A DNA stretch of 64,000 nt from an uncultured virus (IMG/VR IMGVR_UViG_3300029319_000008) (lineage: Duplodnaviria; Heunggongvirae; Uroviricota; Caudoviricetes), in the IMG/VR virus record IMGVR_UViG_3300029319_000008; one strand, given 5' to 3'. Within the stretch, counting starts at the first letter, position 1; each line of letters opens with the position of its first letter. Below the pieces are notes generated by a model that saw nothing but the letters and a program-made list of their open reading frames with translations, was not told the origin of the DNA and ran no database searches. The translations under genes and the position numbers were made by a program. Positions 55,038 to 63,739 of the stretch are shown piece after piece.

Positions 55038-56882
55038 TTAACTAGATACTGGAATTTGTCCTACGCCTGATGTTCTGTTAGCAGATGCAATCGTATCAAG
55101 GATTGTATTTACTTGCACATCCTCTGGTTTAATAGAAATGTATAAATCACGTAATGCTACGATGTCATTTGATTTTGGTATAACTGAAAAAGAAATGGAA
55201 TCAAGATTACCTACAATAGAATTAATATTAATAGCATTAATATTTATTTCACCCTTTTCATAGTCAATTGTACCTGCATCTTTAGACCAATAGATTTTTT
55301 TACCACCACTAATTCTATAAATTGCTAATTTATTAGTTCCATACTTTTCAAAGTAGTAAATAAAGGTTGAATCTTCTCCTGTAATCTTAAATCCATCAGA
55401 TACTAGATCTGTTTCATCAGAAATTCGGTTTCCGTAGCAAATTTCATAAGAAGCAAACACATTTGCTAGAACTGGCATACTTTTCTTAATTCTAATTCTA
55501 GTAATGTTTGATGTAATGCCAGGATCAGTGTCATCAATCTCTGCTACAAGTTTACTGTACTTAAATTTACCATTAAAACGATCTAAATCATTATTTTCAC
55601 CAAAATTTTGAATTACTGCTCTAGTAACCTCTGCAATTTGTTGTGAAGTTCTTCTTGATGTATTATTATTGTAATATACGTAAGAATCAACTTCTAAAAA
55701 GATATATGAAGGATCAATAACTTCAGGAATTACTGAAAGTATGGTATACTCTCTAATTGCTTTATTTAAACTTAATTTTGCTGTTGTAGTTAACTTATCA
55801 GCACCATATGGTTTTGCTGCAATGAATACTTTTCCAAATTGAGGAGGACTTGCATCTTCTCCTCCATAAACTGATAATGCTTCTAGGTTAGGATACAGTT
55901 GAGTAACAAGTGTCTCATAATCTCTAACGGTAACTGCTCTCTGTTGTGCAGAATATGATCTAGGAGCAAGATATTTGATAGAAGTGATACTTTGTGGTAA
56001 AGAACCTCCTGAAGAAGGACTATTTACCGTAATTGTCGGTGTTACATTCTCAAAAGTATTACCACCAAACGTAAATACCCCTGTAAATTCAAAAGCAGAG
56101 CATTTATTTGCTTCATCTTGGTTATTTACGATATATTCAATGTCAACTTCGTCATTATTCTTTAATTTACGTCCAAATGTGTCATCACCAAACAAAAGTT
56201 CAAATTGTTCGTTCTTATTTTCTTGAATCCAGTAAATTTTGTCAGTAGGAGTTAGTCCTGTGATACTTTCTGCCTTTTTATATGTTAATGGAGCATTAAA
56301 ATTATCTTCGTTGACAATAACACGAAGTAAATCAACATCAGCATTAGCACTAGGGATAATAAAGTGCTGTTTTGTTGATGTATCAACGGGATAAATTACC
56401 CTAAGTAAATTTCCTTGGTAAATATCGATATCTGAGAAACGTACTTTTCTAATTCCGTCAGTATCAACAAATGCTTCTCTAGTAATATCATCTAGAGTAG
56501 AAAATACGTAAGATCCATTTTCATTAGAACCAACAAAGGACTCACCCTTCTTTAGAGTGAAAGATCCAATCTGTGGATTTACTGGTACATCCATAGAGAT
56601 CGTTGCCTTTGCAGATTTTGACGATCTTGGTGTATACCCAATTAAATTTGCAAGAGAAACTACATTTTCTCTAATAGAAGCACTATCAAAGAATACTTCA
56701 TTAGCAATCAGGTTAGCATTTAACGCTGAATAGTAAGTATTGTATGATAGTACATCAAGTAACTGTGAAATGACAGATCCTTCAAAGTTATAATCACTAA
56801 ATGTCTCGGAGGCACGTAAATACTCCTTCAAACTCTGTTTGATGTCCTCAAAATCTAAATTAGTGACTGTGTTAAACGCCAT
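55038..56882 (-). CDS. gp6: Baseplate wedge subunit
   Basis: LDFEDIK..L..YL...FSDYNFEGS...LLDVLSYNTYY, QQRAVT..DYE, GGED..PPQFGKVFI. Confidence 0.95.
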   Translation of the reverse strand: MAFNTVTNLDFEDIKQSLKEYLRASETFSDYNFEGSVISQLLDVLSYNTYYSALNANLIANEVFFDSASIRENVVSLANLIGYTPRSSKSAKATISMDVPVNPQIGSFTLKKGESFVGSNENGSYVFSTLDDITREAFVDTDGIRKVRFSDIDIYQGNLLRVIYPVDTSTKQHFIIPSANADVDLLRVIVNEDNFNAPLTYKKAESITGLTPTDKIYWIQENKNEQFELLFGDDTFGRKLKNNDEVDIEYIVNNQDEANKCSAFEFTGVFTFGGNTFENVTPTITVNSPSSGGSLPQSITSIKYLAPRSYSAQQRAVTVRDYETLVTQLYPNLEALSVYGGEDASPPQFGKVFIAAKPYGADKLTTTAKLSLNKAIREYTILSVIPEVIDPSYIFLEVDSYVYYNNNTSRRTSQQIAEVTRAVIQNFGENNDLDRFNGKFKYSKLVAEIDDTDPGITSNITRIRIKKSMPVLANVFASYEICYGNRISDETDLVSDGFKITGEDSTFIYYFEKYGTNKLAIYRISGGKKIYWSKDAGTIDYEKGEININAININSIVGNLDSISFSVIPKSNDIVALRDLYISIKPEDVQVNTILDTIASANRTSGVGQIPVSS

Positions 56883-57274
56883 TATACTCGTTCTAAGATA
56901 AGGTTAAGCGACTGTTGATTTAATGGTAATCCAACAATTCTATAATTAATAGTAACTTCTAAAGAATTATCATCAATATTGTCAATATAATCTACATTAA
57001 CAACTTTTACACGAGGTTCATACACTTTTAAGACATCTTCAATAGAAACTGTGATGTCATCTGCTAAAATAGGGTTAAAATTTTCAAAAATAGCACTTTG
57101 TACCTCTGTTCCAAAGAAAGGACGAAAGATTTTTTCACCTCTCATGGTCATTACAATGTTTTTTACAGATTGCTTAATCGCATCTTCATTTTTTAACAGC
57201 GTAATATCCCCAGTAATCGGATGTTTTTGAAAACTAGGGTTAATATCGACAAATTTTTTGGAAATATTTGCCAT
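56882..57274 (-). CDS. gp25: Baseplate wedge subunit / sheath initiator
   Basis: HP.TGD...KNEDAIKQSVKNIV.T..GE..F.P.FG...YEPRV motifs. Confidence 0.93.
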   Translation of the reverse strand: MANISKKFVDINPSFQKHPITGDITLLKNEDAIKQSVKNIVMTMRGEKIFRPFFGTEVQSAIFENFNPILADDITVSIEDVLKVYEPRVKVVNVDYIDNIDDNSLEVTINYRIVGLPLNQQSLNLILERV

Positions 57275-57318
57275 AAAGGACAAAAGATTTTTTTTAGCGT
57301 TCTACTATACTTTATATA

Positions 57319-58380: not shown

Positions 58381-58634
58381 GCATCTAGATTAATATCTTC
58401 CTTGAAGTTCAATGACCAGAAATCTTCGGCACCTTCGTAATCTCTGAAATAATATTTCACACCTTCGGGGGCATCTAAGATAAACTTGTCAATCTTAGGT
58501 TCATATTCAATTAGTGGTTTGTCTAAGTCGATGTCCTTATCCTTCTCTATGTTAGAAACATACTTTAGATAATCTTCGTAGTCAAGATCAGCACCATACT
58601 CTGATGCTTCAGAAAAATTATACTCGGTACTCAT
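58377..58634 (-). CDS. Acidic hypothetical protein, 85 aa
   Basis: ATG at 58634 (MSTEYNF...); the longer track ORF runs back through a terminator and non-coding DNA. Confidence 0.7.
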   Translation of the reverse strand: MSTEYNFSEASEYGADLDYEDYLKYVSNIEKDKDIDLDKPLIEYEPKIDKFILDAPEGVKYYFRDYEGAEDFWSLNFKEDINLDA

Positions 58635-58781
58635 TGTTTTATAATAACCTATTTTATATATCAACCCCTGGGGGAATTTTTTTCTGAGAAAATTTTTGTA
58701 TATACGAAATTGCGAGGTCGCTAGGATACTTTTGTAGGTTAGATGGTACCTTTGCATTTTAAACGCCACAACGCCCGCATT

Positions 58782-58803
58782 AAAAAAGGGGCAGAATCGC
58801 CCC
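58782..58803 (-). terminator. Intrinsic terminator closing the early region
   Basis: GGGGC-GATTCT-GCCCC followed by TTTTTT. Confidence 0.8.
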
Positions 58804-58953
58804 GTAGTGCTTTTTAGTGTGTATCGGTAGGGTGGGTATCCCTCAGCGTTTGGTAATGTGAGCAACCCTACCGAAAAATGTGTGGTCTTACGTGCATCGG
58901 AATGTGGAACAAAGTGAACTCAGGTATGCCGATGACCGCCACAGGCGGAGCAG
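58804..58953 (-). ncRNA. Candidate structured RNA (3' UTR or sRNA)
   Basis: Perfect 10-bp stem TCGGTAGGGT/ACCCTACCGA plus a bulged hairpin that recurs at 59408-59451; no credible ORF. Confidence 0.45.
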
Positions 58954-59133
58954 TTAGATACTGCTCTTGCCGTGACACCAGAAGGCGAGACGCATGGTGC
59001 TTGCCTTGTCTACCGCTTCAGCGGTTCTACCCATTGCTAATGCACCTTTCTTAAGGTCTCTGCGTGTGAAGTCACCGCGTCTTGTACCTGAGATGATGTT
59101 GCGAGCAGTTTGGAAAGATTCCTGTTTAGTCAT
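58954..59133 (-). CDS. 59-aa basic hypothetical protein, not in the ORF track (MTKQESFQTARNIISG...)
   Basis: Translated by hand; directly downstream of early promoter element 1. Confidence 0.7.
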   Translation of the reverse strand: MTKQESFQTARNIISGTRRGDFTRRDLKKGALAMGRTAEAVDKASTMRLAFWCHGKSSI

Positions 59134-59160
59134 GATGTAGTAGTTGTGTGAACTGATTTA

Positions 59161-59219
59161 ATTATAATGCACATGTGTAGGGAATGGGGGAAGCATGTGC
59201 CACTTCCCCAACTGTCTAC
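59161..59219 (-). promoter_or_regulatory. Early promoter element 1 (palindrome + TATAAT)
   Basis: TGTGCCACTT-N4-AACTGTC from 59196; -10 at 59161-59166; 29-nt spacing. Confidence 0.75.
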
Positions 59220-59383
59220 CAGTCGTAGTCCTCTGTATCCTCTGGACCATATACACACTCTAGAGAGTATGCTTCGAGTTCTTGGTCATCGTCTCCGAAG
59301 TACTCTTCGAGATCTTCGTCGATGTTGTTCTCCTCTATGAGGTTCTCTATCTGGAGTTGAGTGTAGTTTGAATCGTCGGGCAT
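59216..59383 (-). CDS. Very acidic hypothetical protein, 55 aa
   Basis: ATG at 59383; D/E-rich sequence. Confidence 0.65.
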   Translation of the reverse strand: MPDDSNYTQLQIENLIEENNIDEDLEEYFGDDDQELEAYSLECVYGPEDTEDYDW

Positions 59384-59458
59384 GATGATTAATGAATGAA
59401 TGTTTGAGTGTGGACTTACATCAATTGGCAATACGCGAGATGAACGCCACGAGAGAGA

Positions 59459-59617
59459 TCAGATTAACTGATCTTCAAATCTCTCTTTGGCAATGTATTC
59501 GCAATGCTCTTGTAATGCTTCGGGGGTTAATAGGTCTGCCATGCCTGAATTTTGCATTGCTTCCATCTCTTCTTCAAAGAGTGTTTCGAGGATTGATTCG
59601 TGATGTAGAACTGACAT
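59459..59617 (-). CDS. 52-aa hypothetical protein, not in the ORF track (MSVLHHESILETLFEE...KERFEDQLI)
   Basis: Translated by hand; downstream of element 2. Confidence 0.75.
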   Translation of the reverse strand: MSVLHHESILETLFEEEMEAMQNSGMADLLTPEALQEHCEYIAKERFEDQLI

Positions 59618-59639
59618 TTGCTTTGTTGTGTATGTACTT

Positions 59640-59699
59640 ATTATAGCAGTACCCTATGCACCCTGATAGGCAGATTGTGCCACTTCGTCATCTGTCACA
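59640..59699 (-). promoter_or_regulatory. Early promoter element 2
   Basis: TGTGCCACTT-N4-ATCTGTCACA at 59676-59699; TATAAT at 59640-59645; 30-nt spacing. Confidence 0.75.
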
Positions 59700-59887
59700 C
59701 GTACCCATTTGATTGGTTTGCCTGATGTCATTCTCCAAATCATTTGGTCTCCCTCTCTTGCTTTCTGATCTCTTGCCACTCTATATGCTGTATGAATGTC
59801 TAAACAATAGACCGCCCCGTCTGGATCAAAGTTGAACCATGCTGCTGGTTGTACTGCCCAGTTGATTTGATTCTTGTCGTTTGTCAT
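59654..59887 (-). CDS. Hypothetical protein, 77 aa
   Basis: ATG at 59887 (MTNDKNQINWAVQPAAW) behind element 3. Confidence 0.75.
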   Translation of the reverse strand: MTNDKNQINWAVQPAAWFNFDPDGAVYCLDIHTAYRVARDQKAREGDQMIWRMTSGKPIKWVRVTDDEVAQSAYQGA

Positions 59888-59909
59888 TTGTTTTTTTGTT
59901 GTTAATAAT

Positions 59910-59969
59910 ATACTAAGGCAATATAGGGAACATTGCTGCTCCCTATGTGACACTTATCTGACTGTCACA
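59910..59969 (-). promoter_or_regulatory. Early promoter element 3
   Basis: TGTGACACTT-N4-GACTGTCACA at 59946-59969; TAGTAT at 59910-59915; 30-nt spacing. Confidence 0.7.
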
Positions 59970-60053
59970 CAACTCAAAAGTGGTTGTCATGTTTTCATAG
60001 TCAATGGTAACTTTATAGTCACCATCTTCTATAATTTCAATGTTATCTTCCAT
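59943..60053 (-). CDS. 36-aa acidic peptide, not in the ORF track (MEDNIEIIEDGDYKVTIDYE...)
   Basis: TAATG coupling to the upstream gene; fills the gap. Confidence 0.5.
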   Translation of the reverse strand: MEDNIEIIEDGDYKVTIDYENMTTTFELCDSQISVT

Positions 60054-60253
60054 TAGTGTAATACTCCTTTCACGTCACTTGATAAGTAAGTTGATTTACC
60101 ATTGCACACGTTGTCAACAAGGTTGTCGTATGTTTGCATGTCCCACCCCTTCTCCTCTGGGATATTAAGTTCATATGCCATCATGATGAGGTCATAGGCA
60201 TAATCGTATTGAGTTGGGGTTAACTCAATACAGATTCCGTTTGGTTTGTTCAT
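60053..60253 (-). CDS. Hypothetical protein, 66 aa
   Basis: ATGA-coupled ORF in an early cassette. Confidence 0.7.
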   Translation of the reverse strand: MNKPNGICIELTPTQYDYAYDLIMMAYELNIPEEKGWDMQTYDNLVDNVCNGKSTYLSSDVKGVLH

Positions 60254-63679: not shown

Positions 63680-63739
63680 AATATAACAGCAAAAAAGGGG
63701 GGCGTAAACCCCCCTTGTGCCACTTTGTTGACTGTCACA
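63680..63739 (-). promoter_or_regulatory. Early promoter element 8 with an embedded terminator hairpin
   Basis: TGTGCCACTT-N4-GACTGTCACA at 63716-63739; TATATT at 63680-63685; the spacer reads GGGGGG-TTTACG-CCCCCC-TTTTTT on the minus strand. Confidence 0.75.

Follow-up and report, generated by a model that had tools for sequence, protein, structure and literature searches.

The early-gene RNase III signals of phage T7 (R0.3, R0.5, R1, R1.1, and R1.3) are cut inside the interruption of a hairpin, which leaves a protective hairpin at the 3′ end of the upstream RNA. Phage HK022 carries putL and putR, a fixed pair of defined RNA hairpins just downstream of the promoter, and the attC sites of integrons act as folded single-stranded DNA together with an integrase. 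In the T4-type phages RB49 and phi1, promoter-early stem-loop (PeSL) cassettes are described as a strong sigma-70-like promoter joined to a GGGG...CCCC terminating stem-loop (PMC2839356). Here, we describe an RNA hairpin, the UAAG-bulge hairpin, which is present as two copies (A and B) on the minus strand of a 64,000-nucleotide stretch of DNA, called the window throughout, from an uncultured virus (IMG/VR record IMGVR_UViG_3300029319_000008). Copies A and B are members of a wider family of cis-acting RNA hairpins found in marine cyanophage contigs, including the cultured Prochlorococcus phage P-HM1. The platform shared by the family, 5′-GUGGCAU / AUGUAAGUCCAC-3′, consists of a GUGG/CCAC closing helix of 4 base pairs (bp), a UAAG(A/U) bulge on the 3′ side, and an inner helix starting with C-G and then A-U, and it carries an apical part of 26 to ~95 nucleotides (nt) that differs between lineages.

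In behaviour, the element by analogy most resembles the T7 signals, as both are hairpins interrupted on one side that stand between the cistrons of a long early message. Unlike the T7 signals, it falls short of the helix length of an RNase III site (about two turns with an internal loop), with 4 + 4 bp in copy B and 4 + 3 + 7 bp in the long forms of the family; its conserved letters (GUGG, UAAGW, and CCAC) are different, its host is a marine cyanobacterium, and it has 0–2 copies per genome; and, whereas the T7 signals are cut inside the interruption, a cut here is suggested only by a single RNA contig whose match ends in the bulge. With attC, it shares an imperfect inverted repeat with unpaired bases and a variable centre directly past a stop codon, but a conserved G-U pair and the coverage by transcripts favour RNA, and we know of no integrase in these cyanophages. 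Like the PeSL cassettes, it is a short conserved non-coding stem-loop between small orphan early genes at mosaic junctions (PMC2839356). Unlike the cassettes in that account, A and B have no sigma-70-like promoter (58600–60100, minus strand) and no terminating stem-loop, for neither copy has a U-run, the RNA contigs run through both, and the sole terminator-like site is 58803–58788; moreover, the phage's own promoter cassettes are an element separate from A and B, in contrast to the joined promoter and stem-loop of PeSL.

Copy A (58942–58880, minus strand) reads GTGG-CGGTCATCGG-[28 nt]-CCGATGCACG-TAAGA-CCACAC and copy B (59450–59408, minus strand) reads GTGG-CGTTCATC-[16 nt]-GATG-TAAGT-CCACAC. 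The first-pass annotation, made from the letters of the window, described both copies correctly on this strand, but its 5′ ends (58943 and 59451) lie one base too far. It placed the two copies 8–11 nt past a stop codon, and indeed A begins 11 nt after the TAA of the open reading frame (ORF) 58954–59133 and B begins 8 nt after the TGA of the ORF 59459–59617. Copy A comprises GUGG (58942–58939), the UAAGA bulge (58890–58886), CCAC (58885–58882), and a trailing AC (58881–58880), all on the minus strand, with an inner stem of CG, a 2x2 mismatch, and then CAUCGG/CCGAUG below an apical part of 28 nt. The corresponding parts of copy B, on the same strand, are GUGG (59450–59447), the UAAGU bulge (59418–59414), CCAC (59413–59410), and AC (59409–59408), and its inner stem is CAUC/GAUG, or CGUU/GAUG with wobbles, below an apical part of 16 nt. 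The GUGG/CCAC closing stem is present in the minimum-free-energy folds of both copies, and the one-sided UAAG(A/U) bulge is found as UAAGA in A and UAAGU in B, but in B a CGUU on the 5′ side faces UAAGU. Copy A lies in the 3′ untranslated region (UTR) of the last early ORF, and its hairpin recurs without change in 3 IMG/VR and 7 metagenome contigs, while copy B lies between two early ORFs with the next ATG 24 nt on. A separate conserved RNA motif, hairpin 2 (58825–58873, minus strand), follows 8 nt downstream of copy A.

The two boxes are rare in the 64-kb window. When one mismatch was allowed, GTAAGWCCACAC had two matches, both exact (0.42 expected; 5 of 100 shuffled sequences reach two), and GTGGCGKTCATC had likewise two exact matches (0.09 expected; none of 100 shuffles reach two), and the boxes pair up in the same order and strand in A and B. 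In context, the pair probabilities of the closing stem are 0.48–0.53 for A and 0.94–0.95 for B, and the 176-nt A region folds with modest stability (z = −2.10 against shuffles). Two copies alone are insufficient to establish a structure, and the structure of A and B is accepted because of their relatives.

An exact scan of IMG/VR for the joint pattern returned five contigs, three of which are near-identical relatives of the window with both copies. Loci L002 and L004 hold the 42 nt of copy B, with TAAGA replacing TAAGT, in unrelated flanks, and an RNA-library contig (X3, record 17) has the 42 nt of B in yet other flanks that resemble the locus of a small gene ending in ...EDCPF. A loose scan of IMG/VR with GTGGC-N25-55-GTAAGWCCACAC gave at least 120 matches, of which 80 loci were fetched, and 60 distinct hits, including the window's two copies, were compared. 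Among the matches listed, 43 of the 60 fall within long ORFs and look like chance; a start 0–12 nt past the stop of an ORF with 40 or more codons was seen for 11 of the 17 hits outside long ORFs vs. 5 of the 43 inside; and inner-stem lengths in 59 distinct locus hits are near chance. Among the same matches, several low-G+C marine contigs have GUGGCAU(U) and (U)AUGUAAGWCCACAC in common with a wholly different sequence between them, and five contigs carry the element 4–5 nt beyond the stop codon of a small gene whose product ends in ...EDCPF or ...EDFPF.

A motif-independent sample was obtained by anchoring on the 67-aa upstream protein (...TVPEDCPF*; L082:1577-1780), which gave 31 loci with 18 distinct downstream sequences. 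GTGGCA starts 2–5 nt past the stop codon in 17 of these 18, and the 18th locus, which has the most distant protein (63% identity), has no element. The 3′ end T[A/G]AG[A/T]CCAC is kept in 16 of the 17 elements (UAAG in 15 and UGAG in 1), the 3′ box being lost in L260. These elements are 56–106 nt long with interiors of at least six unrelated types, and together with A and B they start 2–11 nt past a stop codon on the sense strand. In P-HM1, the element lies 3 nt past PHM1_075 and is annotated within the coding sequence (CDS) PHM1_076, whose 71-codon ORF is not kept in 17 relatives (longest sense ORF 21–71 codons, in differing frames); judged from this comparison, PHM1_076 ("hypothetical protein") is probably a folded RNA and not a gene. 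In L162, a copy stands directly before a tRNA gene. Copies are single or, in L004, L010, and L016, tandem pairs.

For the analysis of structure, 29 distinct elements were aligned: the 2 window copies, L134, 13 protein-anchored elements, 8 from the pattern scan, and 5 from loci found through hairpin 2. Near-duplicates, L260, the Firmicute-like L188 and L196, and all hits inside long ORFs were left out. The closing helix is paired in 29 of 29 (GUGG/CCAC in 24 and UGGG/CCCA in 5). In five sequences, both partners of two of its pairs differ, G-C being replaced by U-A and U-A by G-C, and the hairpin 2-anchored loci carry one or two copies in which both boxes are changed together (UGGGCAU ... UAAGWCCCA). 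The covariation score of the closing helix is 0.187, compared with 0.067 ± 0.020 for shuffled alignments, and none of 500 shuffles reach it. In the bulge, U, A, and G are invariant in all 29 elements and the second A is kept in 28. The first-pass annotation had proposed a conserved base with a variable apical part and had suggested looking for further homologs and covariation; both were found, and the proposed pattern holds across many lineages.

The 11 long forms have 90.9% of cells paired, with 7 of 14 pairs changed on both sides (24 cells) and a covariation of 0.486 against 0.132 ± 0.032 in shuffles (0 of 500 reach it) and at most 0.177 in slid controls. As judged from the alignments, the long forms are independent and stronger support than the closing-helix set. 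One G-U pair is present in 11 of 11 long forms and would be a C-A mismatch on the opposite strand; the invariant G-U pair and the compensatory changes therefore point to an RNA folded from the sense strand. A and B belong to the short forms, in which the inner helix is partly supported: the second inner pair is A-U in 18, G-U in 2, G-C in 1, U-G in 1, and unpaired in 6, and the third is U-A in 14 and unpaired in 14. The inner helix starts with C-G and G-C in A, with C-G and G-U in B, and with C-G and A-U in most members.

A covariance model built from the 29 elements was used to scan 904 kb, made up of the window, five large cyanophage contigs (three of them 94–100% complete), and the other loci. 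It recovered copy A (30.1 bits, E 1.7e-4) and copy B (30.2 bits, E 1.6e-4), two copies in contig G005, and one weak match in L110 (E 0.06), which was judged false as the stretch looks coding on the opposite strand. The GTAAGWCCACAC box was matched in only 6 of 49 records, with 0 matches for reversed-pattern controls. Against 50,697 phage records, blastn of copy B gave chance-level matches only, and blastn of the A region gave one match, to hairpin 2 in metaG-MbCM1. In 54 loci anchored on the 133-aa ORF 56882–57283, hairpin 2 and copy A were syntenic in 3 near-identical relatives only, and the nearest record (G001) has no match to the hairpin region. In the window and the five large contigs, generic bulged hairpins carried TAAG at 865 of 6131 sites (14.1%), compared with 13.9–15.5% for 11 other letter orders, and the UAAG-bulge descriptor showed no excess at any score cut; there being no generic excess, the family is defined by its boxes and not by the bulge alone.

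Two further loci have related patterns. In L035 (~290–520, with a 133-aa ORF 79% identical), the spot syntenic to copy A holds seven tandem ~24-nt units starting with CACTAAGTAACAC, followed by a homologous terminator, and these may represent the UAAGU signal as a linear array. L196 (351–483) and L188 carry two tandem 72-nt intergenic units, GTGGCATT...CATGTAAGTCCACAC, on a contig that is not cyanophage-like, has strong Shine-Dalgarno sequences, and has no match in the phage collection; the units are either a chance fit to the pattern or an extension of the family beyond cyanophages.

The first-pass annotation had called the motif unrecognised and named a described Rfam family as the finding that would remove its novelty. 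Rfam 15 gave 0 matches at gathering score in the whole window and 0 matches at E up to 10 in 58700–59500, and in 12 related loci at E up to 1 only an unrelated snoRNA model was matched (E 0.85). Our literature search found no published description of the UAAG-bulge hairpin. In the searchable part of the supplementary files of Fremin et al. 2023 (PMC10690425), the 3′ boxes and the hairpin 2 core are absent, and the UAAG-bulge hairpin or hairpin 2 may be among the unnamed candidates of that study. Phage intergenic RNA signals as such are already known; what is new here is one with a sequence-defined platform. Readings of the bulge as a start-stop signal (AUG-UAA), a backup stop, or a selenocysteine-type element were dropped, as AUG is not conserved, UAA is in frame in A only, and the upstream stops mix TAA, TGA, and TAG.

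Contigs from RNA libraries cover the region and read through both copies: X1 spans 58803–59549 (depth 47), X2 59002–59665, and X4 59207–59463. In 3 runs from 2 studies, contigs reach no further than the intrinsic terminator or a point shortly ahead of it (58803 in X1, 58817 in X2, and 58834 in X3), and 58651–58802 has no RNA contig coverage in the 4 runs, which is a weak hint that early transcripts end at the terminator. Among the matches listed, the RNA contigs show no differences from the window in 58564–59024 or 59322–59488 and many in the flanking ORFs. One contig, X4 record 18 (151 nt, depth 5.9), matches 58990–58888, departs inside the UAAGA of copy A, and then continues for 48 nt; of the 30 nt shown of this tail in the RNA sense, 21 are A, 7 G, 1 U, and 1 C. 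Where DNA contigs contain the preceding 22-mer, it is followed by GACCACAC in 3 of 3 IMG/VR and 7 of 7 metagenome cases, and the purine-rich continuation beside the 22-mer was not found in 1.3 Mb of sequence. In cyanobacteria, PNPase extends the 3′ ends of RNA cleavage products with A/G-rich tails. The contig is a thin hint of cleavage followed by tailing.

On these grounds, we tentatively propose that the UAAG-bulge hairpin may act at the 3′ ends of cistrons as a signal for processing or stability, a platform read by a protein with a cut in or beside the bulge. Of the options in the first-pass annotation, a processing site fits best because the copies lie directly behind stop codons, one copy precedes a tRNA, and an RNA contig leaves its match inside the bulge of A. 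The element is transcribed within the early messages, and a protein would recognise it through the GUGG/CCAC helix, the UAAGW bulge, and the first inner pairs (C-G and then A-U). This reader would most likely be an endoribonuclease cutting within or beside the bulge. Such a cut would leave the upstream cistron with the inner hairpin at its 3′ end, where the hairpin may shield it from 3′ exonucleases, and the downstream RNA would be freed starting at CCACAC. The freed RNA would begin the CA-rich leader of the next gene in the case of B, hairpin 2 and the terminator (~95 nt) in the case of A, and the tRNA in L162. The apical part varies freely and can carry other RNA modules.

Several observations weigh against this proposal. 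The lower helix has only 4–8 bp, which is too short for a classical RNase III site, and the bulge misfits the preferences of cyanobacterial RNase E. The four RNA libraries with the region (X1–X4) were available as assembled contigs, in which ends and strand are not readable, and X4 record 18, being one isolated contig, may just as well reflect a rare recombinant. The family is sporadic in the 904 kb scanned and is therefore not a general early-gene signal. With respect to the fold itself, copy B has a z of only −0.89, and among the matches listed from the loose scan, the mean z of interior folding is −0.33 outside and +0.12 inside long ORFs, no better than shuffled. The five UGGG/CCCA sequences belong to one lineage and may represent few events, and they were extracted with an expression demanding both boxes. 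Covariation among 14 pattern-selected rows from the matches listed is not significant, with 50–58 of 500 shuffles reaching the observed score; the pattern-selected set is a reminder that a family can arise from the search pattern itself.

It is also conceivable, if distinctly less likely, that a phage or host protein binds the platform and, without cutting it, controls translation or the fate of the RNA, the hairpin serving as an operator or a sponge. The unpaired letters and first inner pairs are invariant and the apical part is variable, which is typical of protein-binding hairpins, and the occurrence of copies singly or in tandem (L004, L010, and L016 with two each) is compatible with this reading. 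However, the analysis yielded no candidate protein, and most copies lie behind a cistron and not at a start codon, B alone being within 24 nt of the next ATG.

We regard as unlikely the explanation that the boxes are DNA-level homology patches for swapping gene cassettes and RNA modules in a PeSL-like manner, with the hairpin as a by-product. The recurrence of the 42 nt of copy B in unrelated flanks, the quite different interiors at orthologous sites, and the apical parts that host a module also found alone are all in keeping with a recombination linker. In addition, a sub-element of the hairpin neighbouring the copies of L004 is found inside the L151 hairpin, and PeSL-mediated shuffling is documented for RB49 and phi1 (PMC2839356). 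Yet the compensatory changes and the invariant G-U pair suggest selection on a folded sense strand, the element has no promoter, and shuffling at a conserved sequence may be the consequence of its conservation and not the reason for it.

The first-pass annotation had also suggested a put/nut-like antiterminator that lets RNA polymerase pass the terminator at 58803–58788, which we now consider highly improbable. Copy A does lie ~75 nt upstream of this terminator, in L170 the hairpin at the position syntenic with copy A precedes a terminator by ~10 nt, and, like putL and putR, the element is a cis-acting folded RNA that lies ahead of terminators within the early operon of a phage. However, what follows most members is another RNA module, a gene, or a tRNA and not a terminator, and the element is a single hairpin of variable size past stop codons, unlike the two defined put hairpins just downstream of the promoter. 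The RNA contigs through A stop at 58803–58834 (3 runs, 2 studies) with none over 58651–58802, which weakly suggests that termination persists.

Even more doubtful is a derivation of the element, as a variant or a relic, from the phage's early-promoter cassette (GTGACAG-N8-NTGGCAC, 30–31 nt, and TATAAT). The element's 5′ box GTGGC(A/G) resembles the second box of the promoter, GTGGCAC, and its 3′ box is similar to the first transcribed letters beyond TATAAT, ..AAGTACATACACAAC. Against this, A and B have neither a TATAAT-like hexamer nor the first box GTGACAG, a promoter scan of the minus strand (58600–60100) found no sigma-70-type promoter, the gap between the boxes ranges from 26 to more than 90 nt compared with 30–31 nt in 3 of 4 window promoters, and the boxes change in a complementary way. 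Lastly, a small self-cleaving or otherwise catalytic RNA, the remaining suggestion of the first-pass annotation, is hardly credible, for although one RNA contig ends its match inside the bulge, nothing else points to catalysis: Rfam ribozyme families give no match even when E up to 10 is allowed, the conserved core spans only ~15 nt, and the short forms are almost without tertiary potential.

The processing signal that we propose stands among other conserved RNA elements. Hairpin 2 has an outer stem CGGUAGGG/CCCUACCG and, in the window, the interior UUGCUCAC-N10-GCUGAGGGAUACC-CA; its core across relatives (the window, L003, and L006–L026) is UUGCUCAC-N10-13-GCUGAGGGAUACC-C(U/A), the outer stem has compensatory changes at 6 of 6 pairs in 11 sequences, and the motif has no Rfam match. 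It occurs in three settings: with a promoter and a terminator (L007), as the 5′ leader that three near-complete genomes have before a 52-aa ORF (MTRVQITLLVEVD...), and in a 3′ UTR followed by a terminator (the window and L010–L019). In the window, this terminator, GGGGCGAUUCUGCCCC plus a U-run (58782–58803, minus strand; stem 58803–58788 and a T-run), is confirmed where the first-pass annotation put it, and it closes the early gene cluster. Two further conserved modules lie between the ...EDCPF gene and a phosphopantetheinyl-transferase gene in L253–L276, L002/L004, L008, L020, L138, L160, and P-HM1 (NC_015280 41152–41409), in which the CDS PHM1_076 spans both. Module one, stem-GGCA(A/U)GGGU...CUUUAAGUCGAACCUCU-stem, has covarying closing stems and is found within the UAAG-bulge hairpin or standing alone, and module two is the block CCCUAACCCAGUUCGCG...GGAGUCCCA...CUAUAAAGU. 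An RNA module GGCAAGGGU...UUUAAGUCGAACCUCU can also sit inside the UAAG-bulge hairpin.

On comparison of these loci, the swapping of modules is real whatever its function, because copy B recurs in different flanks, orthologous sites have different interiors, and a stand-alone module is nested in the apical parts of long forms. A broader and more speculative idea, to which we attach only a small likelihood, is that T4-like cyanophages carry a toolkit of exchangeable RNA modules comprising the UAAG-bulge hairpin, the GGCAAGGGU...UUUAAGUCGAACCUCU module, hairpin 2, and the conserved block before the phosphopantetheinyl-transferase gene. The UAAG-bulge hairpin would be the docking and cutting site of a dedicated ribonuclease or RNA-binding protein, which would release small RNAs (e.g., hairpin 2 with the terminator) from the 3′ ends of early messages.

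By its matches and gene content, the source of the window is a T4-like cyanomyovirus. In 57.5–62.5 kb, 122 phage records matched at 60–90% identity, nearly all of them Synechococcus or Prochlorococcus myoviruses; the minus strand carries every long ORF of the window, and four of these (2095–4046 codons) resemble the structural modules of T4-like cyanophages. The window has a G+C of 34.5%, a scan of its whole length for tRNA and tmRNA found none, and small ORFs are arranged in a chain from ~58.9 to 64 kb. Several of the small early ORFs are preceded by a rigid cassette of GTGACAG, 8 nt, NTG[G/T]CAC, 30–31 nt, TATAAT, and a CA-rich leader. A pattern scan of the window placed the cassettes on the minus strand with starts at 63738, 62964, 59968, and 59698, and a variant at 59215. 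The distance from the second box to TATAAT is 30–31 nt in 3 of 4, the first hexamer match of the 59968 cassette being at 21 nt. The 30–31-nt spacer is often a small hairpin and once a full terminator; the cassettes have no −35 hexamer, and the CA-rich leader has no Shine-Dalgarno sequence. Doron and colleagues reportedly described, in ISME J in 2016, a new early-gene regulatory element in Syn9, which probably corresponds to the GTGACAG..GTGGCAC..TATAAT cassette of the window. In record 6 of the RNA library X1, 59956 is joined to 60066 with 16 other letters between, a variant replacing 109 nt (59957–60065) around the 59968 cassette and another mosaic junction at a non-coding element.

Perfect 7-bp hairpins at the stop codons precede both copies in the minimum-free-energy folds. 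The hairpin before A (GAGCAGU-AUCUA-ACUGCUC; 58948–58966, minus strand) has the stop codon of the upstream ORF in its loop and 3′ arm, and the 36-nt upstream stretch has a z of −3.62. The hairpin before B (AGAUCAG-UUAAU-CUGAUCU; 59456–59474, minus strand) has the stop codon in its 3′ arm, with a z of −4.72 for the 36-nt stretch. The likeness of A and B reaches upstream into the last codons (..AGT ATC TAA vs. ..TTA ATC TGA), and the stop-codon hairpins are weak in relatives at other loci. In 59381–59461, the 75 nt from the TGA of the 52-aa ORF to the next ATG form a frame without a stop, such that read-through would fuse the ORFs across copy B; this open frame is probably due to chance.

T4-like cyanophages kill a large daily share of the Prochlorococcus and Synechococcus of the ocean, and, to our knowledge, almost nothing is known about the processing of their early messages. 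The UAAG-bulge hairpin is present in a cultured pair, P-HM1 on Prochlorococcus MED4, which makes its function directly testable. Several uncatalogued RNA motifs, exchanged in the manner of cassettes, seem to be present in the non-coding stretches of these phages. If the idea of a toolkit read by a dedicated protein were true, viruses that rank among the most abundant in the ocean would possess a phage RNA-processing system with a recognition code of its own.

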